Source: a bacterium (GTDB lineage Bacteria; Cyanobacteriota; Vampirovibrionia; Gastranaerophilales; JBAXKC01). Taken from it: 53,740 bases of DNA. Below the pieces are notes generated by a model that saw only the letters and a list, made by a program, of their open reading frames with translations, made no database searches and was not told the origin of the DNA. The stretch lies in NCBI GenBank assembly GCA_037137535.1, contig JBAXKC010000019.1, forward strand, positions 1 through 53,740, in the 5' to 3' direction. Positions 3,969-33,196 of this stretch are shown piece by piece. How positions within the stretch are numbered: the first letter of the stretch is position 1; each line of letters opens with the position of its first letter. A program made the translations under genes and the position numbers.

Positions 3969-5004
3969 ATACTTTAGTCAATTAATTGACAATTTATATC
4001 AAGAGGTTAGTCACAAAAAAACCTGTTCTCTGCTCTTTGAAAAGGAAGAGTTTGATGGGAAAGTATATTCTAATGAAAGCTTCTATGAATATACTAAGCA
4101 GTATTTTAATTCCCCCCAAAAATTTTATCTAAAAAGCGAAAACCCCGATTACATATTCTCTTTAAAAAAAGTAAGTGATACGAATCAATTCTCTCAATTT
4201 TCTTTTGATTCACCTTATTCAACAAGATTTGAAGAAAACAAAAAAAGTTATTTTAAATTATTTAATGCCTCTAATTCAGACGTTTTATTAATTTTTTCTC
4301 CAGGTTGGGCGAGGCCTAACTTAAACGTTGAAATAGACTTTTGTGTAAAAATGATGAATTCGGGTATTAATTGCTTGCTCCCTACTATACCTTTTCACCA
4401 AGAAAGAACGCCAAAAGGTTTTTATTCAGGAGAATTATTCATAAGTGCCAACCAACTATTTACTGTTGCTAATTTTAGACAATACGTTGCAGAGTTAAGG
4501 AACATAGTTTCATACTATCGGGATAAATATGATAAAATTGGATTCGTGGGTATGAGTAGTGGTGGTTTTCAGGCTGGTCTCTTGACAACTGTTGAAGAGG
4601 TAGACTTTTACTTTCCATTTATTACCGGAGCGGAACTGAGTACCATAACTTGGAATGGCACATTAACCAAATATGTTAAGAAGGATTTGATAAATAAAAA
4701 TATAACCGAAAAGGAACTTGGTATAATTTGGGCAATCGCTGACCAAAAATATCTGGGTCAAAATTGCAAGGCGAGATATATAAAACAATATATCAGCAAA
4801 TATGATGAAGTAGTACCCACTCCCAATCAATTTGCATTAAACAATATTTATAATAACCCGCCGACATTTTTAATAAACAGTGCCCATACGTCTGTTTTTT
4901 TTAGCTTAAACAAAATTATTAAAGACATGACAAAGGAATTAAAGGCACTACCTAAAATCCATTCTACTAACATTAGCGATGCCAATTGTGGGGCTAGACA
5001 TTGA
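3961..5004 (+). CDS. Alpha/beta-hydrolase fold protein
   Basis: Nucleophile elbow GMSSGG, D in KYDEVVP, H in SAHTS. ATG at 3961 overlaps the upstream stop, so it is preferred over 3865. Confidence 0.8.
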   Translation: MNKYFSQLIDNLYQEVSHKKTCSLLFEKEEFDGKVYSNESFYEYTKQYFNSPQKFYLKSENPDYIFSLKKVSDTNQFSQFSFDSPYSTRFEENKKSYFKLFNASNSDVLLIFSPGWARPNLNVEIDFCVKMMNSGINCLLPTIPFHQERTPKGFYSGELFISANQLFTVANFRQYVAELRNIVSYYRDKYDKIGFVGMSSGGFQAGLLTTVEEVDFYFPFITGAELSTITWNGTLTKYVKKDLINKNITEKELGIIWAIADQKYLGQNCKARYIKQYISKYDEVVPTPNQFALNNIYNNPPTFLINSAHTSVFFSLNKIIKDMTKELKALPKIHSTNISDANCGARH

Positions 5005-5165
5005 AACAATAAGCAGCGGTAATTTTGCTGTTCAGCGATTCGGGGCTTAACGAATAAAGCCCCACTTTAGCTATTAACATTTAACTTTATCAAAAAAACA
5101 GGCAGCAGTTGAGGGTGGACGAATATAAAGATTCCCTCCATCGGCAATACATACAATTTATAGAC
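4965..5165 (+). repeat. Degenerate attC-like imperfect inverted repeat, copy 1
   Basis: TACTAAC...GATGCCAATTGTGGGG arm pairs imperfectly with CCCTCCATCGGCAAT...TTTATAG. Internal hairpin GGGGCTT/AAGCCCC at 5042-5063. Shares blocks with copies 2 and 3. Confidence 0.5.
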
Positions 5166-5239
5166 GAGGCTGTTGAATCACTTCAAAGATTAACTGGCTG
5201 ACATAGAATCAAACTTGCAGATCAAAATTCACTTCCCCA

Positions 5240-7648
5240 ATGATACACAAAGTTGAACGATTAATATCCATCGGAAAATTCCGTAATTATCAAGCAACAG
5301 GTCAAGTTAATTTTCAAAAGCTGACATTATTGTATAGTGACAACGGAGGAGGCAAAACAACACTGACATCTGTTTTACGTTCCTTAACTACAGATAATCC
5401 TGCAATTATTAAAAGCAGGATATCTACAAATCATACTGCACCACAAGCAGCACAAATTATAGAGAGAAATACAACCGGAGTCATTCATCACACCTTTAAT
5501 CCCACGACAGGCTGGACGTTAGCATTTTCCGATATTGAAATATTTGATATACATTTTGTAAATGAAAATATCTATACTGGTTTTGAGTTTAATGATGAAC
5601 ACAAAAAACAGTTGCATCAATTTGTCATTGGAGCAGCCGGCATAGCAATTCAACAACAGATTGAAGTAAATAAAAATGCAAAGACAACTTCACGTCAAAC
5701 GCAAGCCAATATTGAGCAACAACTTTTCACCCAGGTTGGAAATAATTTAAATGAGGATTTAATTACATCTTTTCTTGCAATTGCTCCATCACAAGCAAAT
5801 AATATTGACCAACTTATTAAATCAGCTGAAGCAGCATTGACAAATGCAAGTGCAAACGCAACAATTCGAACATTACAACCTCTAACTCAGTTATCTCAAA
5901 TCAATTCGGGGATAAACTTTACTTCTCTGATTGCCGATTTACAGGCAACTTCTCAAGCAATAAAAGATGCAGCGTTACAAGCTCTCTTTTCAACCCATTG
6001 TCAAGATATATCTGATAATGGTATTGACGGACCTGAAAATTGGTTAAAGAAAGGTTTTGCTTATGTTTCAAATAAGAAAGCAACGGCAAGCACTGAAAAT
6101 GAAGTCTCTCTTTCATGCCCATTTTGCAAGCAAGCAATTGAAAACACAATTGATATTATTAGTGCCTATGTGTTGCAATTCAACTTTGAGTTCAATACAT
6201 TGGTTCAACGACTAGAGACTTATTTAACCACACTTCAAAATTTTAATTTAGAAACGGCAATACAAGCATTAAATAATGCAAATCAACTTAATTCTGGACG
6301 AGTTACATCGTGGAGTACACATTTACCTGCAACTGCATTAGCCCCAACTTTTAATATTATTCCAGATGAAACAATATTAAGAGCTGAATTTCAAGCAATA
6401 ATTGCGGCAGTTCAATTAAAAATTCAAAATCCATCTAAATCTGTTCCCGTAACTACTGCTACAATTTTCCAAGGTTCATTGCAGACTATAAATACAAATA
6501 TTGGAACCTACAACATTTCGGTAACTGCTTATAATGCTTCAATCACGACTTTTCTTGCAGGAATTCAAACTGTTGGGAATGCACAAATTGAAGTGGAACG
6601 ATTAAATAGAATAAAAAGAAGATTTACTCCACCCATTGCTGCACTCTGTGGGCGTTTAACAACGGAAAGGCAAAACCTCAGAAATTTGGAAGCTGCTTAT
6701 CCGGCGCTGGTGCAACAACAGCAAACAGCAGCAACAATTTTTTTCACTAACTATCAGACTCGTATCAATTATTATTTGGGTACAGTATTTAAAACACTTT
6801 TTAGAATTAATAATGTTGCGCATATTCCACCTAGAGGCATGGCAACACAAAGCAAAATTGATTACAAATTAACGATTGATGGTAAAGATATTTCCTTTGC
6901 ACCCAACCAACCATTTAGTGCAAAAGAGTGCTTAAGCGAGGGTGATAAAAGTACTATCGCATTAGCGTTCTTTCTTTCCAAACTTGATATTGACCCAAAT
7001 CGGCAAGACAAAATTTTAGTTTTCGACGACCCTCTTTCAAGTTTAGACACAAACAGAAGAACATATACTATTGGAATAATTAAGTCGCTTTTTCAACAAA
7101 TGAAACAGGTTGTAGTTCTGAGCCACAATGAATACTTTTTGCACGAAATCGGAAAAGATTTTGGAGCTGCCGAAAAAAAAACGTTGCGGATAACAGAAAA
7201 CTTTGCTGCAAAAGCATCTTCCCTTGAAGTTTGCGATTTAGATGAATTGGTTAAAAATGATTACTTCAAACAAATTGAGGCTTTGGAGGATTTCCGAGTT
7301 CATCCAAATCATTCAATAAAGGATACGGCCTTAGGTTGGTTACGAAATGTATTGGAATCCCATTTACGTTTCAAATTTTATAGAGAAATCCGCACAATGC
7401 AAGGGCAAAAAACTTTTGGCAGACTAATTTCATTTCTTGAAACATCTAGTGTGGTTTTTAGGGATAATGCAAATAGGACAACAATAATTTCAAATTTGAA
7501 TTTAATAAATAGCGTATCATGGAAACAGCACCATGGTGACCCAATGCCGAACTTCGCTTCTATGAGCATTAACCCAAACACAATTACTGCATCAGAACTA
7601 GATAATTTGATCCAAGACACTCTTAACTTAATTGAAAATCAATTATGA
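5240..7648 (+). CDS. RloC-like SMC/ABC ATPase (AAA_13) with zinc hook and C-terminal HEPN-like region
   Basis: Walker A YSDNGGGKTT, coiled coil with CPFC, signature LSEGD, Walker B LVFDDP, H-loop SHN, C-terminal LRNVLES. Confidence 0.85.
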   Translation: MIHKVERLISIGKFRNYQATGQVNFQKLTLLYSDNGGGKTTLTSVLRSLTTDNPAIIKSRISTNHTAPQAAQIIERNTTGVIHHTFNPTTGWTLAFSDIEIFDIHFVNENIYTGFEFNDEHKKQLHQFVIGAAGIAIQQQIEVNKNAKTTSRQTQANIEQQLFTQVGNNLNEDLITSFLAIAPSQANNIDQLIKSAEAALTNASANATIRTLQPLTQLSQINSGINFTSLIADLQATSQAIKDAALQALFSTHCQDISDNGIDGPENWLKKGFAYVSNKKATASTENEVSLSCPFCKQAIENTIDIISAYVLQFNFEFNTLVQRLETYLTTLQNFNLETAIQALNNANQLNSGRVTSWSTHLPATALAPTFNIIPDETILRAEFQAIIAAVQLKIQNPSKSVPVTTATIFQGSLQTINTNIGTYNISVTAYNASITTFLAGIQTVGNAQIEVERLNRIKRRFTPPIAALCGRLTTERQNLRNLEAAYPALVQQQQTAATIFFTNYQTRINYYLGTVFKTLFRINNVAHIPPRGMATQSKIDYKLTIDGKDISFAPNQPFSAKECLSEGDKSTIALAFFLSKLDIDPNRQDKILVFDDPLSSLDTNRRTYTIGIIKSLFQQMKQVVVLSHNEYFLHEIGKDFGAAEKKTLRITENFAAKASSLEVCDLDELVKNDYFKQIEALEDFRVHPNHSIKDTALGWLRNVLESHLRFKFYREIRTMQGQKTFGRLISFLETSSVVFRDNANRTTIISNLNLINSVSWKQHHGDPMPNFASMSINPNTITASELDNLIQDTLNLIENQL

Positions 7649-15377: not shown

Positions 15378-15656
15378 ATGGAAACCGATAATTATAAAGA
15401 AAATCTCAAAGAGGCGTTGATCAACTTGAATAATGTTAATCAAACTATATTCGATTCTATTGTATCCGTTTCAATGCAGGGGGAGTTAAAAGAATGGAAC
15501 GACTCAGTACCAATTGGCGAATCCCATCAGTTTAGTTTTGAGTTATTTAAAAACAGTAGTGATACTAATATTCAGCTCCTCGTTAAGCTAATTGAAAATG
15601 TAGACGCCACTTATGAGTCTATAAAAAACATCAATTCCATTGCATTAGAAAGGTAA
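15378..15656 (+). CDS. Hypothetical protein
   Basis: 92-aa ORF, operon spacing. Confidence 0.6.
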   Translation: METDNYKENLKEALINLNNVNQTIFDSIVSVSMQGELKEWNDSVPIGESHQFSFELFKNSSDTNIQLLVKLIENVDATYESIKNINSIALER

Positions 15657-15666
15657 AATTTAAAAA

Positions 15667-16509
15667 ATGATAACAAATCAAGAAACCAATTTTGTATACC
15701 TGTCTGACCAGATGGAGCATAAATGTCCCACAACATTCTCACAACTTACTTTTTGGTTTAAGAAACTAGGAATCGGCTATGGTATCTTATCTAACACAAA
15801 AGATCTTTGGGTTAGAGATTTTATGCCAATTCAGTATGATGCCAACAAATTCATGCAATACAAATATGACCCACAATATTTAAAAACAATCAAGGGGCAA
15901 AAGACTATCTCAGACGTTAAAGCCATCTGCGACACATTGAATATTAGTATTGCAAAAACATCAATTGTGCTAGACGGAGGTAATTTGGTGAAATCTAAAC
16001 ACAAAGCTATCATCAGTACCAGGGTTTTTAAAGATAATCATGGTTATCCCAGACAAAGCCTTATTAACGAAATTAAAAACCAGCTTCAGGTAAATCAGGT
16101 GATTTTGATTCCAGAGGAACCAGGTGATTTTACCGGACATTCTGATGGGGTTATCAGGTTTATAGATGAAAATACTGTACTATTGAATGAGTATCCTTAT
16201 GACAAAAAGTATCTTGTTTATTTTGAGTCAATATATGCAGCACTTAGAAATGCCAGATTAGACATCTGTCCAATACCGTATACCAGCTGGAAGAATAAAA
16301 GTTCAAATGATGCAACAGGTTGCTATATCAATTTTCTGGAAATTGGTAAGTATATCTTTTGTCCAGCATACGGACAACTGGAAGATCAATGGGCTTTGAT
16401 TCAATTAAAGGAGGTTTTCAAGGACAGAGAAATTATAGATATTCAATGTGCACAATTGGCTGAATACGGTGGAGTTCTAAATTGTGCCACCTGGAATATT
16501 TTAAAGTAA
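15667..16509 (+). CDS. Agmatine deiminase / peptidyl-arginine deiminase family protein
   Basis: WVRD, LDGGN, GHSDG and C-terminal GGVLNC catalytic Cys. Confidence 0.9.
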   Translation: MITNQETNFVYLSDQMEHKCPTTFSQLTFWFKKLGIGYGILSNTKDLWVRDFMPIQYDANKFMQYKYDPQYLKTIKGQKTISDVKAICDTLNISIAKTSIVLDGGNLVKSKHKAIISTRVFKDNHGYPRQSLINEIKNQLQVNQVILIPEEPGDFTGHSDGVIRFIDENTVLLNEYPYDKKYLVYFESIYAALRNARLDICPIPYTSWKNKSSNDATGCYINFLEIGKYIFCPAYGQLEDQWALIQLKEVFKDREIIDIQCAQLAEYGGVLNCATWNILK

Positions 16510-16529
16510 TTATTACAAGTAGGAAATAG

Positions 16530-16547
16530 AATAAAAGCGCTTTTATT
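16530..16547. promoter_or_regulatory. Perfect 18-bp palindrome AATAAAAGCGCTTTTATT (motif D)
   Basis: Near-identical copy at 23187-23204; looser copies at 17281, 18446, 20915, 21571 and 21646. Confidence 0.5.
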
Positions 16548-16563
16548 TAGCTATCTTTTTATT

Positions 16564-17247
16564 ATGAAAATTGCAACCTGGAATATCGAAAGGCCTTCTG
16601 CAAACTCTAAAAGAGTCCCCTTTATTCTTAATGAGCTAAGAAGAATAAAAGCGGATATATTCATCTTGACGGAAAGCAACGAGTGTATCATTCCAAATTC
16701 TTCATACCATATTAAGAACTCTAGCCCCTTTGTTGAGTTTCAGCCACAAAAAGGGGAAGTTCGCGTAAGTATACTTTCTAGGTATTCCATTATTTCAGAG
16801 GAAGAAACTTTTCAATCAGATAAAAGCGCTTGTATAGTACTTGATACAACTATTGGAAAGCTGGCAGTATATGGAACGATTATAGGTATAACTGGAAACA
16901 GGGCTCCGGATTTTCAAAAAGACTTGGACATGATTATAAAGGATATTGACCACATCAGTAAGCTATATCCTTTATGTATCGCTGGGGATTTCAACATGTC
17001 ATTCTCTGATATTTACTATTTCACAAAGGAAGGGAAGGAAAAACTGAACGCTTGCTTTGAGCGGAACAATTTAATAAATATGACTGCGGGAGTAAAAAAT
17101 AATATCGATCATATTGTTTTACCCCAAAACCTTGCTTCTCTTCAAAACGGGCAACCAAAAGTGTGGAATAATGTAAATAAATTAGAAAAGAAAGATTGTT
17201 TGAGTGATCATCAAGGTGTCTGTGTAGAAATTAATTACTCATTATAA
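16564..17247 (+). CDS. Endonuclease/exonuclease/phosphatase (EEP) family protein
   Basis: KIATWNI, LTE, AGDFN, IDHI, SDH. Confidence 0.9.
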   Translation: MKIATWNIERPSANSKRVPFILNELRRIKADIFILTESNECIIPNSSYHIKNSSPFVEFQPQKGEVRVSILSRYSIISEEETFQSDKSACIVLDTTIGKLAVYGTIIGITGNRAPDFQKDLDMIIKDIDHISKLYPLCIAGDFNMSFSDIYYFTKEGKEKLNACFERNNLINMTAGVKNNIDHIVLPQNLASLQNGQPKVWNNVNKLEKKDCLSDHQGVCVEINYSL

Positions 17248-17276
17248 ATAGGTGGTGATCTAAGAATATAATTTTG
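17241..17276 (+). promoter_or_regulatory. Motif B operator plus -7 box
   Basis: ATTATAAATAGGTGGTGAT-N9-TAATTTTG. Confidence 0.6.
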
Positions 17277-17395
17277 AATTCATAAAAGCACTTAAATTTG
17301 CTTTATCATCAAGAACCCTTCAATGGGTACCAACCGAGAGCAACAACTCCACGGTGGTAAAATGATGAGGACTTACAGTCAAAATAAAATGTAAA
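17269..17395 (+). repeat. 127-bp exact direct repeat, copy 1
   Basis: Identical to 18434-18560; weaker similarity continues to the ATGs (TCATACTATG in both). Confidence 0.95.
17306..17395 (+). ncRNA. Candidate minimal SAM-I-family (SAM-I/IV-like) riboswitch aptamer, copy 1
   Basis: P1 UCAUC/GAUGA, J1/2 AAGA, short P2 ACCC/GGGU, P3 ACCAACC...GGUGGU, AA, 3' hairpin GAC/GUC. Starts just after the -7 box TAAATTTG (17293-17300). Confidence 0.55.
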
Positions 17396-17444
17396 CTCCT
17401 TATTTCTTCTTGGTTTGATTTTTTAACTTTTAAATTATCATACT

Positions 17445-17720
17445 ATGTCAAACACGGAACACGAATTACCAAAACAAGAAATCAAGAATTCTGAAGAAAG
17501 GACATCCTTAGAAATATTAAACAGTAAGCGTATGTGGGACAAAGCCGGAACCGGATTTTCTATACCATATCAGAAACCTTCCCAAACTACCCGATCATGG
17601 AAGCATACTGACATATTAAAAGAATGTAATGAAGACTTGGGAATTAAAACTACAAGTTCAGATAGTTCTTCTTCTGATGAAAACTCAATAGAAATAACAT
17701 TTTTTAAAAAGAAACAATAA
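17445..17720 (+). CDS. Hypothetical protein
   Basis: 91-aa ORF directly behind leader copy 1. Confidence 0.55.
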   Translation: MSNTEHELPKQEIKNSEERTSLEILNSKRMWDKAGTGFSIPYQKPSQTTRSWKHTDILKECNEDLGIKTTSSDSSSSDENSIEITFFKKKQ

Positions 17721-17791
17721 AAGTCAGACTGAGAGTATTCTAATCGGAAGAAATTCCTACTGATTGGACTCGCTTTGTAAATTAGAAATCA

Positions 17792-18187
17792 ATGATGACA
17801 AACGCTTATATAGATCAAATATTAATTGCTGTCGGATTAAAACGCAGAATTATAGCTAAGGATCCACAATTTTATGTTTGTGACAAAACTCAATTCATCG
17901 AATATGTTTCAAAACAGTACCAACAAAATTCGGAGCTAAGGGAAATGGATGAAGTCTACAGCATGTGTGAACAAATACTGTTACATAAAGAATCTGGATT
18001 AAGGTTTAGATATTCAACCTATGAGAACTATGTTGGAGATGAAGTTGAGTATAAATTAATTGAAATGTTTGTATTGAATAGCCTTAATCAACAGTTAGAG
18101 CTGATAGAAGTTAATATGAGAACAAGGGTAGTAGTAACTAAAGAGGGTCATTTTTCATTTGATGAATTGAGTAAATCCAAATATTAA
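17792..18187 (+). CDS. Hypothetical protein
   Basis: 131-aa ORF. Confidence 0.6.
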   Translation: MMTNAYIDQILIAVGLKRRIIAKDPQFYVCDKTQFIEYVSKQYQQNSELREMDEVYSMCEQILLHKESGLRFRYSTYENYVGDEVEYKLIEMFVLNSLNQQLELIEVNMRTRVVVTKEGHFSFDELSKSKY

Positions 18188-18235
18188 AACCAAAAATGAT
18201 AATAAAATCCTAATTGTGTAAAGTAAACAAACACC

Positions 18236-18409
18236 ATGGCTAAATATGGATTTTCCTTTTCCTGGAAACGAGCTCTTGGAGTAACAAGCGCCAAACAAAA
18301 GTTTGCTCGACAAACCGGTATCCCAACTACCAAAACCGGGATGGAAAGAAAGTTAGGTGGATCAATTGTTAGTTTACTATTAGGTTTATTTGGTGGAAAG
18401 AAGAAATAG
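18236..18409 (+). CDS. Small basic conserved hypothetical protein (57 aa), absent from the ORF track
   Basis: MAKYGFSFSWKRALGVTSAKQKFARQTGIPTTKTGMERKLGGSIVSLLLGLFGGKKK; the FSFSWKRALG/TGIPTT pattern is one I recognise from small hypothetical proteins. Confidence 0.75.
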   Translation: MAKYGFSFSWKRALGVTSAKQKFARQTGIPTTKTGMERKLGGSIVSLLLGLFGGKKK

Positions 18410-18441
18410 ACAATAGGTGGTAATCTGATAATTTAATTTTG
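18406..18441 (+). promoter_or_regulatory. Motif B operator plus -7 box
   Basis: ATAGACAATAGGTGGTAAT-N9-TAATTTTG. Confidence 0.55.
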
Positions 18442-18560
18442 AATTCATAAAAGCACTTAAATTTGCTTTATCATCAAGAACCCTTCAATGGGTACCAACC
18501 GAGAGCAACAACTCCACGGTGGTAAAATGATGAGGACTTACAGTCAAAATAAAATGTAAA
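18434..18560 (+). repeat. 127-bp exact direct repeat, copy 2
   Basis: Identical to 17269-17395 (offset 1165). Confidence 0.95.
18471..18560 (+). ncRNA. Candidate minimal SAM-I-family riboswitch aptamer, copy 2
   Basis: Identical to copy 1. Confidence 0.55.
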
Positions 18561-18613
18561 TCCCAAACTCATTTTTCCTGGTGTGATTTTTTAAACAATT
18601 AAAACTTCATACT

Positions 18614-19333
18614 ATGTTACAACAATTGATTATTTCAAAAACCAAAGAAGAGTCAAATTATTTCTTTAGTGGAACAATTACCTGGAAAAGTGTTTCCTTT
18701 CATGTTACTACAACAATAATTCAAATTCAGTACGGGTTTACGCACCAGGTAGTTGTTCTCTATAACAATAAGATTTTTCGTTTTAGTCTAACAAAATGGA
18801 AATATAGTGGCGGCAGCTCAGGTGAGAGTCCTATTATCATTTCGGGGGATTTTCATTTACAATTAAAATCAGTATTGAATGGGGTCTATTTTAAAGAAAA
18901 AGTCAGTAACGAGTTTTTTGATAGCTATGAGCTTTTTTGTACCAATTTTGAAATAAGTTCTGAATATGGTAATTATGATACCAATATCAAAAAGGCAGAA
19001 AAGGTTTTGACATTGGAGGCAAAACCAGATAAACCACTAGAAAGGATATTGTATAAATTTCAAGATCAAAAAGTAGCTATAGAAAGCCTGGTTTATTACG
19101 AAGAAGACAGATTAGCGGTTGATTACTGGAAACTATACAGTAACTATGAATCGGAAGAATGGATTTATGTTGCAAAAGACGGCATTGAAATATTGAACAG
19201 ATATTTTTATACCACTGATAAAACTGAACTTTTATGGAAAATTCAGGAAACCTGCAGTGGGGCTGACAGCATAGAAAAGTTTGAAAAGCTGTTAATTAAA
19301 CTGGAGGTTTTATATACACATGTGCGAAGATAG
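18614..19333 (+). CDS. Hypothetical protein
   Basis: 239-aa ORF directly behind leader copy 2. Confidence 0.65.
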   Translation: MLQQLIISKTKEESNYFFSGTITWKSVSFHVTTTIIQIQYGFTHQVVVLYNNKIFRFSLTKWKYSGGSSGESPIIISGDFHLQLKSVLNGVYFKEKVSNEFFDSYELFCTNFEISSEYGNYDTNIKKAEKVLTLEAKPDKPLERILYKFQDQKVAIESLVYYEEDRLAVDYWKLYSNYESEEWIYVAKDGIEILNRYFYTTDKTELLWKIQETCSGADSIEKFEKLLIKLEVLYTHVRR

Positions 19334-19373
19334 TTGAATGCTCTAGGGATTAATAAATTTATAGATTGTTTAA

Positions 19374-20084
19374 ATGATTATTCCATTTAAAGTTGGGAAA
19401 AACAGTAATGCAGAAGATCAATTTATTGACCTTTCTGATGTGCCATTATTAATGATCTCTTATTGCGAAGAAGGAAATCTAAATATGGTACTACAGGAAA
19501 TTAACCAGATAGAATATCCTTATAAACAAGCTAATTATTTCATTACAAATAGTAAAAGGATTAGTTTAAAAGAGGATTTTAATTTTGAAACCATATACTT
19601 TTTGAAAGATGAACCAGAGCGGGGTTATATTTCATCAAGGAAATCAATGTTTAGAATTATTACAGATGAGATTACATTCAGGCAGCAGCTTCTAAAAGCA
19701 AAAAAAGTCAAAGATTTTAAACGCTACTTTTCTTTAAATCTCTGGAACACCGAAAAACGGTCGTATCAATTTTTAATTATTGATGACATTTGGGATATTG
19801 TAACTGCCAAACCAAAAGACCAGGTGATTAGTTTAATCAGAATTATACTTTATGGTCCAGCTGTAGGAATCCATACCATTTTCGCCAGCGGAATTTCCTA
19901 CCGCAACTTATTAGAACAACTCATAAATGTAAACCCTCAAATTACAGATCTTCTTCAGGAGAAATATGGGGTACCCGAACCCACTCAAATGTCAGCATTA
20001 GGGAAAGAGCTTATTTATACCCCAGATGGATTGATTTATTACAAATCGAAAAATATGGGCGAAATAGAAAAATTCTATCCCTAA
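19374..20084 (+). CDS. Degenerate FtsK/SpoIIIE-like ATPase domain protein lacking Walker A
   Basis: IPFKVGK...IDLSDVPLLMIS mirrors the FtsK pre-P-loop; FLIIDD Walker B and GPAVGIHTIFAS match FtsK; no GxxGxGKS. Confidence 0.6.
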   Translation: MIIPFKVGKNSNAEDQFIDLSDVPLLMISYCEEGNLNMVLQEINQIEYPYKQANYFITNSKRISLKEDFNFETIYFLKDEPERGYISSRKSMFRIITDEITFRQQLLKAKKVKDFKRYFSLNLWNTEKRSYQFLIIDDIWDIVTAKPKDQVISLIRIILYGPAVGIHTIFASGISYRNLLEQLINVNPQITDLLQEKYGVPEPTQMSALGKELIYTPDGLIYYKSKNMGEIEKFYP

Positions 20085-20112
20085 TATGGTTTTTGACTTA
20101 TCCAATTATATA

Positions 20113-20147
20113 AATATAAATACACGGTAATCTCACTTATTATTTTG
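20113..20147 (+). promoter_or_regulatory. Motif B operator (degenerate) plus -7-like box
   Basis: AATATAAATACACGGTAAT-N8-TTATTTTG. Confidence 0.45.
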
Positions 20148-20167
20148 TGTAGTATAAATGAAATACA

Positions 20168-20851
20168 ATGGACCCCAACACATACGAACCCAAGTATTTG
20201 TACCTCAATGAAATTTATATATCTGAACTGGTTTTCGATAATGGAGACGGCCTGTCACTTTTTGGATATTTAAAAGACTGGCATTCTAGTAAATTGGTTA
20301 GATGGGATTTCTTTTCAGACTTTAGTCAGTTAACTGATATATTATTAGAATGTGGCGAAGCAGGAGAAAGGCTGATTGACGTTTTATCCAAAACGCTTTT
20401 GGAAATCGTTGAAATTCCAACGGTTATTGATGTGGAACAGCAGCTGGATAAGTTATTAAAAGTAGATCAGTTTATTTTTAAGGTTTATCGACCCTGCGAA
20501 AAAGGCAATACCGGAGAATGGCATCCCACGAATGACCAATGTTTGTTCATTGAAGCAATTGCGCCCAAAGAAAAATTCATAACCGAAAACCCTAGTACTT
20601 ATATTTCTTTCTGTAAAAGAGGGGCTATAATAGCCGATCATTTGGATGATGCTATTGCAAATATTGTAGTCGATCCCATACAGGAAGAGTTGGATGAATT
20701 ACTACTGACTTTAAACAAAGCATACATGGTTTATAAAGGGCTGCGGAATCAAAAATTCAGTAAAAAACAGGCAAGGAAAATGGCAGGACTAAAAGACGAT
20801 TTCCTTTTTAAGATCGCGGATCTGAATAACAGGCTTTACAGAGAACTTTAA
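20168..20851 (+). CDS. Hypothetical protein
   Basis: 227-aa ORF. Confidence 0.65.
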   Translation: MDPNTYEPKYLYLNEIYISELVFDNGDGLSLFGYLKDWHSSKLVRWDFFSDFSQLTDILLECGEAGERLIDVLSKTLLEIVEIPTVIDVEQQLDKLLKVDQFIFKVYRPCEKGNTGEWHPTNDQCLFIEAIAPKEKFITENPSTYISFCKRGAIIADHLDDAIANIVVDPIQEELDELLLTLNKAYMVYKGLRNQKFSKKQARKMAGLKDDFLFKIADLNNRLYREL

Positions 20852-20930
20852 AACAGAAGCTAAATCTTTCCAAATTGAAATAAGCAAACACATACATATT
20901 TTAGTTCGTACTTTAGTAAAAACGCTTAGA

Positions 20931-21575
20931 ATGGATGCGAAAAAATTGAAAGCCAGATTAAAGGCTAGCAAGGAAAGTATTACAAGCCAGCATGCTGTTC
21001 GTTTACACAGAGCTATTAGCTGGTTAAAATGTGCGGAGGATATTCAAGACAACCTTGATCTTCAATATATCAGTCTATGGATTTCATTTAACGCCTGTTA
21101 TGCGAACAACCTTAGTAAGGGAGAATTGCTTTCAGAAAGAGATAGCTTTAGCTCGTTTATAAGTAAGCTTGTTAAGCACGATAAAGAAATGCGTTTCTTT
21201 CATTTGCTCTGGAATCAGTTTTCAGGACCAGTTAGACTGCTAGTTGAAAATAAATACGTTTATAAACCTTTCTGGGAATTTCAGAGAGGGGAGATTAAAG
21301 ACTGGAAAAAACCGTTTGAAAAATCGGTAACAGATTCCATGAAATTCCTGTCGGCACAAAATGTGGGGGGATTACTGGAAGTAGTATTAGACCGCTTATA
21401 TACATTGAGGAATCAGTTAATGCATGGAGGCGCAACCTTCAAGAGCGATATCAATCGATCTCAGGTAAGGGATGGAAATAATATGCTGAAATTATTGGTG
21501 CCACTAGTTATTGAGATTATGCTAACTAATAATGATGAAGACTGGGGTGAAATTTATTATCCGGTAATTGAATAA
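20931..21575 (+). CDS. HEPN domain protein, putative RNase
   Basis: RLHRAISW...LWISFNACY and intact RNQLMH (Rx4H) motif. Confidence 0.8.
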   Translation: MDAKKLKARLKASKESITSQHAVRLHRAISWLKCAEDIQDNLDLQYISLWISFNACYANNLSKGELLSERDSFSSFISKLVKHDKEMRFFHLLWNQFSGPVRLLVENKYVYKPFWEFQRGEIKDWKKPFEKSVTDSMKFLSAQNVGGLLEVVLDRLYTLRNQLMHGGATFKSDINRSQVRDGNNMLKLLVPLVIEIMLTNNDEDWGEIYYPVIE

Positions 21576-21660
21576 AAACGCTTTTATAGAGCTTGTTACT
21601 TAGTTTTTCTATCAATTACCCTAAAGGAATAATTTTTATAACATAATTAAAAACGCTTTT

Positions 21661-22170
21661 ATGGAGCAAGTTATCCATTTAAAAACAACACTTTCTTTTC
21701 GGGAAATGGAATCTGCTTCTGAATCAGCATTAATCATTAAAAAGTTTATTGAGTCCTGCATGCAATTAGATGTTTCCTTATTCGAGCCGTTTATGAATGA
21801 GGAAGATAATTTTGAGGATAAGGATAAATATCGTTTTTTAGAAAGATTGCGCAAGAGCTTCGAAGAGTATCGGCAGGATTTATTGGACGATTTTATTGTA
21901 GAACGAACTACCACTATTTGCGAAGGCTGTTCTTATGGGAAAAGGGTTGAACAATTCAAAGTCTATGAAGGGGAATCAAAAAAATTCTATGATGATTTTG
22001 GGTTTCTAATCGATGAAAATAACGGAAAGCTTATAGATATTTATCAATGTAACCAATACAAGGGATGTAAAATGGTAACGATTGGTGGCGGCAGCTCAAA
22101 TTTTCCAGAAATCACAATTAGCGAACAGGTATTAAAAGAAGAGCATAGAAAACGCTTAAACAAACAATAG
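21661..22170 (+). CDS. Hypothetical protein with CxxC
   Basis: 169-aa ORF, CEGC. Confidence 0.6.
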   Translation: MEQVIHLKTTLSFREMESASESALIIKKFIESCMQLDVSLFEPFMNEEDNFEDKDKYRFLERLRKSFEEYRQDLLDDFIVERTTTICEGCSYGKRVEQFKVYEGESKKFYDDFGFLIDENNGKLIDIYQCNQYKGCKMVTIGGGSSNFPEITISEQVLKEEHRKRLNKQ

Positions 22171-23070
22171 CTTATTATTTTCCAATTGCTTTTCACCATC
22201 AAAGCGATATGCAACTAGTTTCCCTTCTTTTGCAACGCTATAATCTAAGCAACAAATATTATCTCGATAGATAGAAGGATTCCCATTAAGCCAATAATGA
22301 CCAAAAAATACCGGCTTGTCATTTTCAGAATAATAATTTATGTTTTTTAATAATGAAATATCAACCTGAGTTTCCGGAAGGCTTTCTAAGGGTTCAACGC
22401 TAATTTGTTTGTAATTACTTATAATTGGATCTTCCCACCATTTGATTCTGATCTCAGTTCTATGATGCCCGTCTTTATCATTGAAAGATTGTCCTTCTGG
22501 CATTTCAATTTCCTTCCCTTTTAATGTTTCTTCAATTGCTAAATTAAAGTTACTTCCTTCATCAACTGATTCGTAAATGTATTCATCATTTAAGCAGTTA
22601 TTATACAGTGGTAGTGTTTTAATATAATCAATATTGGATTGGTCTCAACAGGCATGCACTGCTCTAAATTCATTTGTTTCATAAAACAAAGGAAGAGTCT
22701 TAAACCAATTTAGGTAATCTTCATATTCGTTTTGCCTATTTTGAAACTGTTTTAGCGTTTCATAATGTTGGATGATGTTTATAATTTTATGTTTTCTTAA
22801 GTGACCTCCTTGCATTTCAGGATAATGAAAACATAAAGCGTTATACTTGTGATTTCCCATCAAAGCAATAGCGTTACCAGAATCGCGCATTGCTCTAACA
22901 ATTTGAAGTGTTTCTCTGATTTGTGGTCCTCGATCAATATAGTCTCCCACGAAGAAGGCTTTTCTTTCTGAATGCCTATACGATCCGTTAATCATCGTGT
23001 ATCCTAATTTTTTAAGCAACTCTTCTAACTTGTCGGAATAACCGTGCACATCACCAATAAAATCGAACAT
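22156..23070 (-). pseudogene. Calcineurin-like metallophosphoesterase (ApaH/PrpA-like) interrupted by an in-frame TGA
   Basis: GDVHG, GDYIDRG, GNH(K), HAC*, FGHYW. The two track ORFs are in the same frame, separated only by TGA at 22645-22647. Confidence 0.85.
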
Positions 23071-23235
23071 AAATATATTTTTCAATAACCATGAAATAAC
23101 TAATAGTTCAATTTAATCATTTTTATTTGTTTTTTAAAATATGCTATCATCGAATTGGTTATCCGAATACATCTCTAAATAAGATAAATAAAAGCACTTT
23201 TATTCAGTTACATTTTTTAACACTTTTGTAAACGT

Positions 23236-23271
23236 ATTGTAAATAGGTGGCAATCTTCTACACGAACTTTG
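23236..23271 (+). promoter_or_regulatory. Motif B operator plus -7 box upstream of AAA-WYL2
   Basis: ATTGTAAATAGGTGGCAAT-N9-GAACTTTG. Confidence 0.6.
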
Positions 23272-23288
23272 TGTTTCAAACCTAATTT

Positions 23289-24959
23289 ATGCCTGAAACA
23301 AATGCCAAGGAAATTCTCCATGCCTGTCAACAATTGTTCAATAAAACAAAAGGAAAAAAAATTACACCAAGTTTACAAAAATTAATTGCCAGCTATCGCA
23401 AAAAGTTGACATCCACATTTTCGATTACCGACACCGAATCGTTAATATTCTCCTTTGTATTACTTGAAACATTTCGCGAAAGAGAAGTAAGCATTGATGA
23501 ATTAGTTAAACATTATGGAAATGATTTTTCATTGGTACCCGAATTTAATGCAGCACTTGAAAGTCTGAAAGAAAAAAAAATATTTTCACTAAGACCAGGA
23601 TCAATAAAAAGAAGAAAAGAAGTAGGGTATCGTTTTACGGTCAATCATCGAATCGTTGATGCTTTAATGAAGGGCGACTTATCTCTCATTCAAGTAGAAT
23701 CGCACCTGGTATTTTATGATATGCTCCAAGAGGTGAGTAGTATTATTGATATGCAGGATAATGATGTAATTACCTCTTGTGAACTTATCGAGGAATTAGA
23801 AGACGTTCTAAATTCAAATAGACAATTTCAGCAAGTTGATTGGCTTTTAAAACATAGTTTAACAAGGGAAGAACAAACCATGTTTTTTATTATATGCTGC
23901 GATACAGTAGCCGGGAATAATGTTACTGATATAGACGAATTATTAAAAAAGGTTTTTCATCTACCCTATGAAAGGCTTGATTATAAACGAAGTATAAAAG
24001 ATAAGACTAGTAAATTATTAGAAAAGGAGCTAATCACTTTTGATCCAAATAACTATGGTTATTTTGAAGGAGTATCACTTTCAGAAAATTCACAACAAAA
24101 CATTTTGTTTGGAGATTCACAACTTTTAAAAAAAAGCTTTAAGCCAAAGTTAGCTCTGTTGATAAATCATCAAACTATCGTTCCTTGTCAGCTCTACTAT
24201 AATCCAGCAGAAAATGAGCAAGTACAAGTATTGAACGATGCGTTGGAACAAAAAGCTTACCAGGAACTGACAGCGCAGTTAAAAAAGAATGGACTTGGCA
24301 CAGGATTTACTGTATTACTTCATGGCGCTGCAGGTACAGGTAAAACGGCCACCGTAAAAGAGTGGGCCAGACAAACAGGAAGAAATATTTTAATGGTAGA
24401 AGTTGATAAGATAAAAAGTGCCTGGGTGGGTGAGAGCGAAAAGCATTTGAATGACTTGTTTCAGGAGTATAAACGAGCTTGTACTTTCTATGAGAAACAC
24501 CCCATTCTACTGTTCAATGAAGCAGATGCTATCTTAGGGAAACGCATGCAGGTAAAATCCAGTGTCGATCAAATGAATAATTCTATCCAGAATATTCTAT
24601 TACAACAGTTAGAAGATTTTGAAGGAATCTTTGTAGCAACAACTAATCTCGCCGAACATTTAGATAATGCGTTTGATAGAAGATTATTATATAAAATAGA
24701 GTTCAAAGCTCCAGAAAAACCGGTTCAGCAACAAATATGGTCCTCGTTTTTTCCGGAACTTGAACAAGAAATTTTACGAAATATACATGATGAAGCCGTA
24801 TTAACTGGTGGTCAGATAATGAATGTTAAACGTAAACTGCTTGTGAACAATATATTGAGAAATCAAAAAACAACGCGGGAGCGGTTAATGATTGCTTGCA
24901 GAGAGGAAAGATCATTAAATAACAATAAACATCGAAGCGCCATCGGCTTCAGGGGATAA
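23289..24959 (+). CDS. AAA+ ATPase (SpoVK/Ycf46/Vps4-like)
   Basis: HGAAGTGKT, LLFNEAD, ATTN, LDNAFDRR. Confidence 0.9.
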   Translation: MPETNAKEILHACQQLFNKTKGKKITPSLQKLIASYRKKLTSTFSITDTESLIFSFVLLETFREREVSIDELVKHYGNDFSLVPEFNAALESLKEKKIFSLRPGSIKRRKEVGYRFTVNHRIVDALMKGDLSLIQVESHLVFYDMLQEVSSIIDMQDNDVITSCELIEELEDVLNSNRQFQQVDWLLKHSLTREEQTMFFIICCDTVAGNNVTDIDELLKKVFHLPYERLDYKRSIKDKTSKLLEKELITFDPNNYGYFEGVSLSENSQQNILFGDSQLLKKSFKPKLALLINHQTIVPCQLYYNPAENEQVQVLNDALEQKAYQELTAQLKKNGLGTGFTVLLHGAAGTGKTATVKEWARQTGRNILMVEVDKIKSAWVGESEKHLNDLFQEYKRACTFYEKHPILLFNEADAILGKRMQVKSSVDQMNNSIQNILLQQLEDFEGIFVATTNLAEHLDNAFDRRLLYKIEFKAPEKPVQQQIWSSFFPELEQEILRNIHDEAVLTGGQIMNVKRKLLVNNILRNQKTTRERLMIACREERSLNNNKHRSAIGFRG

Positions 24960-25131: not shown

Positions 25132-26124
25132 ATGCCCAGTAATAAGAATGCTGTATTACGTTATCGCATCATTGATGGCTGTTTAACCAACCCCTATCAT
25201 AAGTACCCATCATTGGATTATATCCAAAAAAAAATAGAGGAGCAATTGAACAATGCAATTTCCGTGTCGATGATTCATAAGGACTTCAAGTCTATGAAAG
25301 AGATTTACAGTGCGCCAATCAAATTTAATAAAATAAGGGAGGGATATCATTATACAGAGGATGGATTTTCTATCAAGGAATTCCCGTTAACAACTGAAGA
25401 AATTTCGGCATTGGATTTTTCAACTGCCTTACTACAAAACCTGAAAGGAACGAAGCTTTTTATTCAATTTGAAAATGCCATTAACAAGTTAACAGAGGGT
25501 TATCGGATAAGTAAGGTATTGGGTAAGTCTGAGAGGCAAGTCATTCAAATTGAAGAACCTACCAAAACGTTGGGTAACCAATGGCTGGAGCCCTTGTTGG
25601 AAGCCATTATACAGAAAAAAGCACTTGCTATCACTTATGCACGTTACGGCGGTGAGCCCAAAGAGCATATTGTGTCAACCTGTTTATTAAAAGAATACCA
25701 TAATCGATGGTATTTGGTTGGCTATTCAGCTAGGGTAAAGGATTTACTCGTAATGGCATTGGATAGGATCAAAGCGGTTGACCCTTCTAAATCCCCGTAT
25801 CAAGCCGATATCAATTTTATCTCAGAAGATTTTTTCAAGTATAGTTTTGGAATTACGCAAATCCATGGAGCCAAGCCAGAAAAGATACTATTGTCTTTTA
25901 CCCCCCATCAGGCTCAGTATATCCTGAGTCAGCCCCTTCATCAATCACAAAAGCTAATTCTTGAAAACAGCAAAGAGGTACAAATTGAGTTGGAAGTATA
26001 TATCACCCAAGAGTTGATCATGAGCATTCTAGGATATGGAGCCGGTGTGAAGGTTTTAAAACCAGTTCATTTCAAAAAACAAATAAAGGAGTTAATACAG
26101 CAAATGCTTGTTAATTATAAATAG
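25132..26124 (+). CDS. WYL domain transcriptional regulator 2
   Basis: LRYRIIDGCL N-terminus, LKEYHNRWYL, ALDRI, QPLHQSQ. Confidence 0.93.
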   Translation: MPSNKNAVLRYRIIDGCLTNPYHKYPSLDYIQKKIEEQLNNAISVSMIHKDFKSMKEIYSAPIKFNKIREGYHYTEDGFSIKEFPLTTEEISALDFSTALLQNLKGTKLFIQFENAINKLTEGYRISKVLGKSERQVIQIEEPTKTLGNQWLEPLLEAIIQKKALAITYARYGGEPKEHIVSTCLLKEYHNRWYLVGYSARVKDLLVMALDRIKAVDPSKSPYQADINFISEDFFKYSFGITQIHGAKPEKILLSFTPHQAQYILSQPLHQSQKLILENSKEVQIELEVYITQELIMSILGYGAGVKVLKPVHFKKQIKELIQQMLVNYK

Positions 26125-27816: not shown

Positions 27817-29340
27817 ATGAACTATAAAATCGAACCCAAAGCAAGCAGTATATTAGGATCTCTAAGAAGTATTGGGTATGATTTAAAAACCGCTTTAGCT
27901 GATATAATTGATAATAGTATTTCAGCTGGCGCAAAAAAGATCGAAATTGTAAATAATGATATTTCTGGTTTAAACCCGAAACTTGAATGGCTTGCAATTG
28001 TAGATGATGGCGAAGGAATGACATTGCCCAAAATGGTTGAAGCCTTTATTTTAGGAGGTGATGGAATTGAATCATTAAGAGAGGATTCGGATTTAGGAAG
28101 GTTTGGTTTAGGTTTAAAAACTGCAAGTTTTTCACAATGCAGGAAACTAACAGTTATTTCAAAAACAAAAAAGACAAAAATAAAATCTTTAGTTTTCGAC
28201 CTGAATTTTATTATTTCAAATAAAAATAAGTGGGAAGCTTATACACTAAATGATCCTGATCTTGCTTTAGTAAAAATTAAATCAAGATTATTTAATCAGG
28301 GAATATTTGAACAAGATTCATGGACTTTAGTTCTGTGGGAAAATATTGATAAAAAAATAATCCAAGGCAATAAAATATTTTATGAGGAATTAGAAAAAGT
28401 AAGGGAACATATTTCATTAATATTTCATAAATATGAAAAAGGACTTGAAATAAGATTGAATAATACAAAAATAATATTTTGGGATCCTTATGCTACTGCA
28501 ATTTCCAGTGCGAAAAAAAATTATCGTTTTAACTCAGAGGGGGAATCGTTTCATTTAAAAACTCATCTGCTTAAACATAATAGTGAATTCAATAATCAAA
28601 ATGAGTATAATGATCAGTCACGGATCGGCAGCTTTAATAAAAACCAGGGTTTTTTTATTTACAGAAAAAACAGGTTAATATATCATGGAGGCTGGCTGGG
28701 ATTATATCCTAATGAGCATAATTATATTCTTGCAAGGGTTGAGATAAATTTGTCAAACTCGTTTACTTCAGATTCTGAATGGAATGTAAATATCAGTAAA
28801 TCATTAATTGATATTCCCTCTTTTGCATTAAATGATATAATACAGGAATGTGATGGAGTCCGTTCATCTGCAAATGATGTTTTCAGATTTCATGGAGGCA
28901 TCAAAAAGAATGTTATAAGGACTAAAAAGAAAGTAAATGAAATAAATTCAATCTGGAATTTTGAAAGTAAGGGAGATAAGGATGGATTAAAAGATTATTA
29001 TGAAATCAATAAAGAACATCCAATTATAAAAAGTTTTAGTAATGGTTTATCTAATAAAGAAGTAAAAAAACAGTTTAATCAGCTCCTGAAATACATTGAA
29101 AACTATCTTCCAATAGATAATATTTTTGTTCGAAAAGCAAATCAGAATATTGTACAACCCCGGCAGGAAAATAGTATCATTTACGAAAAATTTAAATCGA
29201 TTTTTAATATTATGAAAGAAGAAACAGGTTTGGAAAATGCTTTTCAAACTCTTATTAATGTTGAACCTTTTAACCGTATAACATTTGATAAAAAAATGTT
29301 AGATGATTTAGGAATTAATTATGAAAAAAACAATGACTAA
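27817..29340 (+). CDS. MORC/MutL-type GHKL ATPase (MzaB-like)
   Basis: ALADIIDNSISA, DDGEGM, DLGRFGLGLKTASFSQ. Confidence 0.92.
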   Translation: MNYKIEPKASSILGSLRSIGYDLKTALADIIDNSISAGAKKIEIVNNDISGLNPKLEWLAIVDDGEGMTLPKMVEAFILGGDGIESLREDSDLGRFGLGLKTASFSQCRKLTVISKTKKTKIKSLVFDLNFIISNKNKWEAYTLNDPDLALVKIKSRLFNQGIFEQDSWTLVLWENIDKKIIQGNKIFYEELEKVREHISLIFHKYEKGLEIRLNNTKIIFWDPYATAISSAKKNYRFNSEGESFHLKTHLLKHNSEFNNQNEYNDQSRIGSFNKNQGFFIYRKNRLIYHGGWLGLYPNEHNYILARVEINLSNSFTSDSEWNVNISKSLIDIPSFALNDIIQECDGVRSSANDVFRFHGGIKKNVIRTKKKVNEINSIWNFESKGDKDGLKDYYEINKEHPIIKSFSNGLSNKEVKKQFNQLLKYIENYLPIDNIFVRKANQNIVQPRQENSIIYEKFKSIFNIMKEETGLENAFQTLINVEPFNRITFDKKMLDDLGINYEKNND

Positions 29341-33194: not shown

Positions 33195-33196
33195 AA

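Follow-up and report, generated by a model that had tools for sequence, protein, structure and literature searches.

In the part of the description by Weinberg et al. (2010, PMC2864571) that bears on them, SAM-I/IV variants are relatives of the S-adenosylmethionine (SAM) riboswitches SAM-I and SAM-IV that lack the internal loop of P2 and come mostly from metagenomes. The present analysis concerns two copies of such an aptamer in contig JBAXKC010000019.1 of assembly GCA_037137535.1; this entire contig of 53.7 kb (53,740 nucleotides) is referred to as the window, and all positions are those of the whole window. The crystal structure of a metagenomic SAM-I/IV representative is known. The window copies share with the Rfam family of this name (RF01725) the SAM-I-type core, a P2 without internal loop, the absence of P4 and a hairpin after P1. 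They differ from it in that their 3' tail contains no Shine-Dalgarno sequence (the tail of the Rfam consensus reads ..aggag..), that the start site lies 77-81 nt downstream and would be masked by a separate hairpin, that the pseudoknot PK-2 is short, and that the genes behind them are not methionine or SAM genes, although an association with such genes is usual for the family and not part of its definition.

Six leaders of Bacteroidota metK genes (L069, L098, L055, L105, L100, and L110) have the same aptamer subtype as the window copies, an anti-P1 element of the UCUUGAUG type and a sequestor hairpin abutting the AUG. However, they control SAM synthetase, the canonical target, whereas the window copies precede orphans, and in two of them (L100 and L110) two aptamers serve one gene, whereas in the window there is one aptamer per operon. 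The metK gene of the assembly itself, on contig C9, has a SAM-I (S-box, RF00162) leader of 90.8 bits, which belongs to the same clan and ligand class as the window switch and occupies the same 5' leader position. It is, however, a classical four-helix aptamer in a Melainabacteria-like core genome, while the window switch is of another type and is accompanied by Bacteroidota promoter signals. A looser likeness would be to the guard-type anti-phage triggers, which sense the loss of a host function: retron Ec48 guards RecBCD, and PrrC guards EcoprrI. In both cases an effector would be released when a phage disables a resource of defence, but the known triggers use protein sensors, while the sensor proposed for the window is a metabolite riboswitch. 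Phage SAM-degrading enzymes are able to disable BREX and restriction-modification systems.

Results of our analysis indicate that it is the cargo of the window switch, and not its RNA class, that is unusual. The presence of a functional-looking, duplicated cassette of the SAM class, which would gate two cargo operons by start-site masking, is well supported by the sequence comparisons described below. That each repeat is a complete Bacteroidota-type cassette, composed of a promoter, a SAM-I/IV aptamer and a translational platform, and that the duplicated cassettes gate two cargo operons in response to low SAM, we consider probable.

A duplicated SAM-I/IV aptamer and its relatives

The window holds a direct repeat of 149 nt (17247-17395 and 18412-18560) with 97% identity between the copies. 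The original prediction, made from the DNA letters of the window, had placed a repeated aptamer at 17306-17368 and 18471-18533; these letters are indeed repeated, within a longer repeat than had been claimed. In the pairwise alignment of the copies, mismatches are confined to the first 40 nt, i.e., to the promoter region, and to the last base or two. Positions 17270 to 17395 are identical between the copies, and the aptamer is the same in both letter for letter. The 50 nt that follow the repeat, up to the start codons, are 70% alike and have the same end, ..UCAUACUAUG, in both copies. The two aptamers are as follows, R1 being a covariance model described below:

17301-17396, forward strand: SAM-I/IV riboswitch aptamer, copy 1 (P1, P2 hairpin, P3, 3' hairpin P5 and tail), 60.4 bits with RF01725 and 69.5 bits with R1
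18466-18561, forward strand: SAM-I/IV riboswitch aptamer, copy 2, 60.8 bits with RF01725 and 69.5 bits with R1

The Rfam scores were obtained with cmscan, for which the gathering score of RF01725 is 41.1 bits. Both copies align to this family over the full model (positions 1-99); they are the sole Rfam matches within the window, and RF01725 has no other match in the 2.95-Mb assembly. A full-length match above threshold argues that the window RNA belongs, as judged by its sequence, to the described SAM-I/IV family and is not a new aptamer class. The "minimal" SAM-I-family aptamer proposed originally is therefore retained as a member of the SAM-I clan, but its novelty is not, since RF01725 had already been described. 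Within the assembly's own order, RF01725 is matched at E up to 0.001 in 8 of 151 genomes; among the seven other than G000, six matches are better explained as SAM-I, and the remaining one is borderline (41.7 bits) and lies beside a 5S rRNA gene.

The alignment to the RF01725 consensus assigns AUCAUC/GAUGA to P1, AAGA to J1/2 and CCAACC...GGUGG to the core of P3, followed by an A-rich J3/1. P2 is formed by ACCC/GGGU with a 6-nt loop and has neither a kink-turn nor an internal loop. There is no P4: P1 closes right after J3/1, and a 4-bp GACU/AGUC hairpin follows 3' of P1. The earlier description of the element as a SAM-I-clan aptamer without P4 and kink-turn, of SAM-I/IV type and with a 3' hairpin, agrees with this alignment. 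All columns that are invariant in 13 metK-linked aptamers are present in both window copies, and an A.C mismatch in the inner P3 of the window copies is found at the same position in those 13 aptamers.

Relatives were sought in contigs representing one genome per species with the core pattern ATCAAGA..CCAACC..GGTGG..GATG. At least 118 loci match this pattern, mostly in metagenome-assembled genomes and isolates of Bacteroidota. To avoid circularity, R1 was trained only on the 13 aptamers that precede metK; it was given an Rfam-based structure, because RNAalifold applied to the MAFFT alignment (A1) shifted P3. While the seeds score 63-84.5 bits with R1, both window copies score 69.5 and most other pattern matches 40-72 bits; among the remaining pattern loci, four score no more than 19 bits and are chance pattern matches, and two have no match. 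An aptamer is called validated below if it scores at least 40 bits with R1. The Rfam model itself confirms 10 aptamers in four of the five genomes checked. The distribution of the aptamer is sporadic, e.g., it is present in 5 of the 121 genomes of the family to which the L080 genome belongs.

In the alignment of 98 aptamers that are not linked to metK (95 of them distinct), 89.9% of cells are paired, and double-sided changes occur in 11 of 17 pairs. Covariation among these aptamers scores 0.344, compared with 0.100 in shuffled alignments (none of 500 reaches the observed value) and with at most 0.059 when the partners are slid. Both Rfam models and covariation in homologues had been named in the original prediction as a way to check it, and the 60.4 and 60.8 bits of the copies, together with 0/500 shuffles, speak in its favour. 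For the pseudoknot PK-2, formed between the P3 loop and the 3' tail, at least five matches were found in 29 cognate versus 7 non-cognate combinations among 116 aptamers.

Promoter and predicted expression platform

The -7 promoter box stands 15 nt upstream of AUCAAGA in both copies:

17293-17300, forward strand: -7 promoter box TAAATTTG of cassette 1, at the -15 position, as in 28 relatives
18458-18465, forward strand: -7 promoter box TAAATTTG of cassette 2, assigned by its position relative to the aptamer

An exact TAnnTTTG, which we take to be the Bacteroidota -7 motif, occurs at -14 to -23 in 67 of 116 aptamers, with the mode at -15 (28 cases), while 0.012 occurrences per stretch searched are expected from the loci's own background. 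The -7 box that had been noticed directly before the aptamer is thus at the modal position among relatives. The conservation of this position argues that each aptamer opens its own transcript, from a promoter of Bacteroidota type, with the predicted start at about the 5' end of P1.

Downstream of the aptamers, no intrinsic terminator was found on the forward strand between 16400 and 23400. Termination as a mechanism was rejected, as intrinsic terminators are absent from this region and are present in 0 of 13 metK leaders and in 5 of 101 non-metK leaders. The distances from P1 to AUG fall into a short class of 41 leaders (20-43 nt) and a long class of 52 leaders (59-118 nt), the latter including the window leaders with 77 and 81 nt. 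The elements of the two window platforms are predicted as follows:

17408-17415, forward strand: anti-P1 element UCUUGGUU of copy 1, complementary at 7 of 8 positions to CAUCAAGA, i.e., to the 5' strand of P1 and J1/2
17412-17444, forward strand: predicted start-site sequestor hairpin of copy 1, in which GGUUUGAU (17412-17419) pairs with AUCAUACU (17437-17444) abutting the AUG, -7.4 kcal/mol
18576-18613, forward strand: expression platform of copy 2, with the anti-P1 element UCCUGGUG (18576-18583) and the arms GGUGUGA (18580-18586) and UCAUACU (18607-18613), -10.4 kcal/mol

The architecture of these platforms recurs in relatives. An anti-P1 element, defined by complementarity to CAUCAAGA at no fewer than 7 of 8 positions and having the consensus UCUUGAUG, is present in 43 of the 52 long leaders, whereas shuffles reach 16 at most (mean 7.5). 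In long-class leaders, the bases after the anti-P1 element pair with the 8-10 nt just before the AUG. The median energy of the sequestor duplex is -8.9 kcal/mol for cognate arms versus -3.8 kcal/mol for arms swapped between loci, and 4% of the swapped duplexes reach the cognate median. Six metK leaders (L069, L098, L055, L105, L100, and L110) have the same anti-P1/sequestor layout, and two of them, L100 and L110, end in UCAUACUAUG, as do the window leaders. The two window platforms have diverged, yet each of them retains both pairings. In constrained folds, the sequestor hairpin of copy 1 forms when P1 is closed, and the bases around the AUG have a mean unpaired probability of 0.51 with P1 closed versus 0.66 with the anti-P1 pairing in copy 1, and 0.39 versus 0.71 in copy 2.

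These features suggest the following mechanism. Binding of SAM would close P1 and free UCUUGGUU in copy 1 and UCCUGGUG in copy 2; the freed sequence would pair with the 7-8 nt before the AUG, so that the start would be masked and the genes would be off. When SAM is scarce, the same sequence would pair with CAUCAAGA of the open aptamer, leaving the start exposed and the genes on. The direction of the switch, off at high and on at low SAM, is inferred from the architecture that the window shares with metK leaders, because metK must be feedback-repressed. Cassette 1 would in this way gate the genes ORF91-ORF131-ORF57, and cassette 2 the genes ORF239-ORF236-ORF227-ORF214-ORF169, as cargo of a mobile island that is expressed when SAM is low. 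Given the identity of the aptamers and the 70% likeness of the platforms, the cassette may have been duplicated recently or copied through recombination. Bacteroidota largely lack Shine-Dalgarno sequences, and the common platform of an anti-P1 element and a start-codon sequestor may indicate how a translational riboswitch can work in such a phylum.

Several points weigh against this picture. The covariation described above was measured in an alignment (A7) fitted to the model, and ascertainment by pattern inflates conservation at fixed positions; the pattern fixes part of P1 and P3, and the informative pairs are therefore the outer P1 pair, P2, the outer P3 pair and the inner P3. The PK-2 expected for the family comprises just 3 bp in the window (ACA/UGU), and it is not supported by covariation in L068 and L121, the closest relatives, whose loop is identical but which have no PK-2 pairing. 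The anti-P1/sequestor layout is absent from 7 of the 13 metK leaders. The change in accessibility is small in copy 1, and in copy 2 the anti-P1 fold (-32.9 kcal/mol) is less stable than the P1-closed fold (-36.4 kcal/mol), the thermodynamic predictions being modest altogether. The extent of the operons is deduced from spacing and the absence of promoter motifs only. Finally, no RNA run covering 17000-19400 was found, and the RNA run of the same sample gave 0 contigs for 15500-23500.

Upstream of the -7 boxes, both cassettes contain a 14-nt box, of which the window holds two further copies:

17248-17261, forward strand: 14-nt box ATAGGTGGTGATCT of cassette 1, a candidate operator or element of the -33 region
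18413-18426, forward strand: 14-nt box ATAGGTGGTAATCT of cassette 2
23243-23256, forward strand: third copy, ATAGGTGGCAATCT, 33 nt before an IetA-like AAA gene (23289-24959), which is followed by a WYL gene (25132-26124)
49702-49715, reverse strand: fourth copy (2 mismatches), located within the third WYL gene, in its 5' part

The box, ATAGGTGGYRATCT, lies 7 nt upstream of the first TAnnTTTG in both cassettes (17269-17276 in cassette 1), and before the IetA-like AAA-WYL operon it has the same spacing to a -7-like motif as in the cassettes. Four matches occur in the window versus 0.6 expected, and 0 of 100 shuffles reach four; the box is absent from all other loci compared and thus confined to this island. 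It may be an operator shared by the cassettes and the AAA-WYL operon. The original prediction had combined the SAM sensor with a WYL promoter. The part of this proposal that stands is the occurrence of a common box in both copies and before the AAA-WYL operon (23243), while binding by a WYL protein is conjectural and the box is absent from the other loci compared.

Gated genes and their possible role

The genes that follow the two aptamers, designated units 1 and 2, are:

17445-17720, forward strand: ORF91, first gene of unit 1, encoding a small serine-rich protein; 12 homologous clusters with 63-76% identity
17792-18187, forward strand: ORF131, second gene of unit 1, with neither a family nor a solved relative and without a usable ESM Atlas match
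18236-18409, forward strand: ORF57, third gene of unit 1, whose translation reads as a small basic protein with a hydrophobic C-terminal stretch
18614-19333, forward strand: ORF239, first gene of unit 2, of a rare family with 5 close clusters only
19374-20084, forward strand: ORF236, a variable gene with an FtsK/HerA-like domain (phrog_1358, 6.5e-5; PF01580, E 0.25); 121 cluster representatives
20168-20851, forward strand: ORF227, whose translation has no family
20931-21575, forward strand: ORF214, encoding a HEPN-domain protein with RNQLMH as Rx4H motif; 667 relatives
21661-22170, forward strand: ORF169, last gene of unit 2, whose translation has no family; convergent genes follow

The spacers of unit 2 are of 40-85 nt, and no exact -7 box was found in the spacers of units 1 and 2. 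AAAACGCTTTT motifs occur in unit 2 spacers at about 21576-21660.

Pfam and NCBIfam searches revealed no methionine or SAM gene behind either aptamer copy. None of the eight gated open reading frames (ORFs) has a match in Pfam, NCBIfam or PADLOC-DB 2.0 (E up to 0.001), nor, except for ORF236, an informative PHROG. The downstream genes had been described in the original prediction as non-metabolic orphans, one of them with a dead FtsK-like domain. This description fits, as no family was found apart from the weak FtsK likeness of ORF236 and the HEPN character of ORF214. Searches of PDB sequences with ORF239, ORF227, ORF169, and ORF131 gave nothing below E 0.03, and the ESM Atlas had no usable match for ORF239 or ORF131.

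ORF91 represents a real small conserved family. For its clusters P0248, P0252, and P0254 the longest contig is of the same length (9,947 nt), as it is for P0249 and P0255 (1,333 nt), which suggests that these clusters are tandem paralogues. In L025 (30% identity, E 4.6e-26) and L147 (E 1.6e-5), the switch is likewise followed first by a relative of ORF239. Of two metagenome scans for ORF239, one gave nothing and the second gave distant relatives, L129 and L130, without an R1 aptamer. A scan of viral contigs revealed no relative of ORF239, and for ORF214 one match of 36 residues. The family of ORF236 comprises proteins of about 230 residues with a weak likeness to FtsK. As the Walker A motif GxxxxGK[ST] was not seen in the ORF236 translation, while an hhhhDD stretch (LIIDD) is retained, its product is by these motifs an FtsK/HerA look-alike and not a working member of the ATPase family. 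ORF214 itself has no Pfam match at E up to 5, but some of its 667 relatives are named "HEPN domain-containing protein" or "Apea-like HEPN", and PF18735 is found on some of them. It is predicted to be an RNase effector, i.e., a toxin that cuts RNA. In L080, the fourth gene after the same switch encodes a homologue with 59% identity to it.

Metagenome contigs of other freshwater samples, compared at 85% likeness, correspond to the window at 17305-17397 only and have unrelated sequence on both sides, which hints that the cassette may recombine at the edges of the aptamer. Downstream of this segment, run X4 continues with sequence similar to the platform of L068 and L121. A freshwater contig of run X2 joins 19317 to 20055 with 54 other letters between them and does not contain ORF236, which therefore appears to be a variable insert in the operon.

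The genes behind the switch in other genomes were surveyed by taking as the first ORF, by a crude rule, the first ATG ORF of at least 55 aa located 20-450 nt downstream. After removal of 13 that follow chance or sub-threshold matches, the 111 ORFs scanned were reduced to 98 behind validated aptamers. Thirteen of these encode MetK and 75 have no Pfam family. The others include four of the FGase family, two MoxR-like AAA proteins, one DUF3293, one DUF4846 and two thioredoxin-like proteins, the last being far downstream, beyond a terminator. The non-metK first genes, with the two of the window, form 62 BLAST clusters from 94. While the gene associations of a riboswitch normally point to metabolism of its ligand, metK follows the switch in just 13 of 98 cases and diverse orphans in most others. 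Such diversity of cargo behind a known SAM switch hints at an unrecognised low-SAM response, and it suggests a testable idea, namely, that cells or mobile elements read the SAM level as a signal of danger or stress. If the gated genes are truly on at low SAM, depletion of SAM would offer a simple handle on many unknown families.

More than one aptamer per locus is not restricted to the window. Two or three aptamers of at least 40 bits are present in L057, L061, L071, L089, L100, L106, L110, and L118, and multiple aptamers occur also in the viral locus L134, the second of which scores 38.6 bits, so that with the window there are ten such loci in all. In L089 (Algoriphagus aquatilis, 3796-6947), three paralogous aptamers, each with its own platform, precede different orphans; they are the only RF01725 matches of that genome, and metK there is therefore not under this class. 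Two tandem aptamers about 165 nt apart precede a single metK in L100 (754-995) and L110 (1957-2198). Each of the 11 viral contigs matching the pattern contains a validated aptamer. In L133, L134, and L138, which are prophages of the Prevotella/Xylanibacter type, it precedes a 137-aa orphan among endolysin amidase and tape-measure genes, a typical position of morons. The first gene of the viral loci L132 and L140 is the same as that of L070 and L086; the neighbours of the aptamer are repressors and DNA-metabolism genes in L135 and L136, and L139 has a RelE-like toxin near it.

A tally of 300 genes neighbouring the switch (within 3.5 kb, 85 loci) revealed no Pfam family with more than four occurrences among the 25 commonest per batch. 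Most neighbours are housekeeping genes (e.g., those of a tRNA synthetase, LpxB, GroEL, and SRP54) or have no known family, and a few each are AAA_14/DUF4143, WYL, HipA, Schlafen-type helicase, and AbiEii-like. When the first two batches of neighbours were searched with PADLOC models (E up to 1e-10; a third batch comprised 69 neighbours), a minority matched (PDC-S01, WYL, AbiE, BrxL, AbiLi, and others). The tallies, which count the 25 commonest families per batch, are mixed and do not bear out the switch as a general marker of defence islands.

Our leading guess is that the gated genes have a role in genetic conflict. Phage SAM-degrading enzymes would deplete SAM, and the switch, possibly with a WYL-controlled promoter, would then turn on effectors (among them the HEPN RNase and a small membrane-type protein) that abort the infection or back up methylation-dependent defence. 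This reading, which we put forward tentatively, agrees with the location of the cassettes in a defence island behind an integrase (PDC-S06, HNH, PDC-S26, three WYL genes, Dcm/Vsr, McrBC, and others), with the presence of a HEPN gene in operon 2 as well as downstream of the switch in L080, and with the occurrence of the 14-nt box also at the promoter of the AAA-WYL operon. Validated aptamers in 11 of 11 viral contigs and the extreme diversity of the gated genes (62 clusters from 94), which is typical of conflict genes, point in the same direction, as do the defence-type neighbours (WYL, AbiE, BrxL, AbiLi, and PDC families) found at some other loci. However, the HEPN protein is the only gated protein with a recognisable effector domain, the 300 neighbours in 85 loci are mixed and many of them housekeeping, the 14-nt box is unique to this island, and no phage SAM-degrading enzyme has been linked to these hosts. 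Nor was a precedent found: a literature search whose scope left most subscription journals outside revealed no paper in which defence, prophage cargo or orphan genes of islands are connected with a SAM riboswitch. A broader claim, that the Bacteroidota SAM-I/IV cassette is a portable low-SAM trigger, a metabolite-sensing guard that islands and prophages attach to changing effectors and that fires when an invader drains SAM, appears doubtful to us. If true, it would make the cassette the first riboswitch to act as a sensor of an immune or abortive-infection response, and it would explain in one stroke what dozens of orphan gene families do.

Alternatively, the gated genes may constitute an accessory response to methionine or SAM starvation, serving scavenging, sparing, growth arrest or protection from self-restriction and not defence against phages. 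The same type of cassette precedes metK (13 of the 98 first genes), FGase-family hydrolases follow the switch in four loci, many loci lie amid housekeeping genes, and the island contains methylation-linked restriction genes. A comparison of the gated ORFs (first genes of 94 aptamers from L012-L128 and the window) with neighbouring ORFs, a background set that includes uncurated ORFs, gave a lower methionine content in the former (1.63% vs. 2.23%; Mann-Whitney p 8e-6). However, cysteine is higher in the gated proteins, so that total sulfur is not spared; these proteins also contain more aromatic and basic residues and are shorter (median 137 aa vs. 236 aa). The lack of a Pfam family in 75 of 98 first genes, which form many unrelated clusters, is unlike a metabolic regulon, and the switch is sporadic (5 of 121 genomes) and present in prophages. 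We thus consider a starvation response an unlikely explanation of the window genes.

A changed ligand, such as S-adenosylhomocysteine (SAH) or another adenosyl compound, could in principle explain the non-metabolic genes, the weak PK-2 and the A.C mismatch in the inner P3, and an altered ligand had been envisaged in the original prediction. It is highly improbable, as the A.C position and the other invariant core positions are common to the 13 metK-linked aptamers, and with the metK-only model R1 the scores of the window copies fall inside the range of the seeds. It is just as hard to believe that the copies no longer regulate anything and are either relics in decay or a repeat spread through recombination: although 97% identical duplicates lie beside unrelated genes and contigs of other samples have the aptamer segment alone with different flanks, both copies retain the promoter, the full aptamer and both platform pairings despite divergence, the spacing to the AUG is conserved, and 95 distinct relatives covary.

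Island and host

The setting of the two cassettes in a restriction-modification island, as had been originally proposed, is apparent from the restriction and defence families encoded in the window. At the start of the window is a gene for a tyrosine integrase with arm-binding and SAM-like domains of Bacteroidota style; PDC-S06, HNH, and PDC-S26 nucleases follow. Genes on the forward strand between 12401 and 17247, separated by gaps of 10-54 nt, encode an AAA ATPase, a WYL/WCX regulator, three orphans (121, 184, and 92 aa), an agmatine-deiminase-like (PAD_porph) protein and a nuclease/phosphatase of the EEP family; this operon, which immediately precedes cassette 1, is a candidate for an unrecognised defence module. 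Short palindromic repeats of the AAAAGCGCTTTT type are located around and inside the EEP gene (16519-16552, 16642-16669, and 16820-16847).

Beyond unit 2, the IetA-like AAA gene and the second WYL gene are followed by DUF2779 and a HATPase/Z1/DUF4420/AIPR cluster, and further along the island lie genes for Vsr, McrBC, Dcm, GIY-YIG, and the third WYL protein. The region 27817-42001, with HATPase_c_3, Z1, DUF4420, and AIPR, then Vsr and McrBC, and with Dcm on the opposite strand, is, judging from these families, a large methylation-linked restriction block.

The tetranucleotide distance of the contig is 0.0116, compared with 0.004-0.006 for most contigs of similar size in the assembly. The named homologues are from Chitinophagaceae genera such as Sediminibacterium or from a "Bacteroidota bacterium", while no SusD homologue was found in the assembly, which otherwise looks Melainabacteria-like. 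The Bacteroidota-like promoters, integrase and homologues, together with the outlying tetranucleotide composition, suggest that the contig is probably misbinned or a foreign element, derived from Bacteroidota. The statement that the host's own metK is under another switch class holds only if the contig truly belongs to the assembly.

Two adjacent ORFs on the reverse strand (22156-22503 and 22645-23085) are convergent with unit 2. The upstream one (146 aa) resembles the N-terminal part of calcineurin-like phosphoesterases (Pnkp phosphatase, PrpE/ApaH type), and the 115-aa ORF that follows it has no family match; by sequence, the pair looks like a split or broken metallophosphatase gene.

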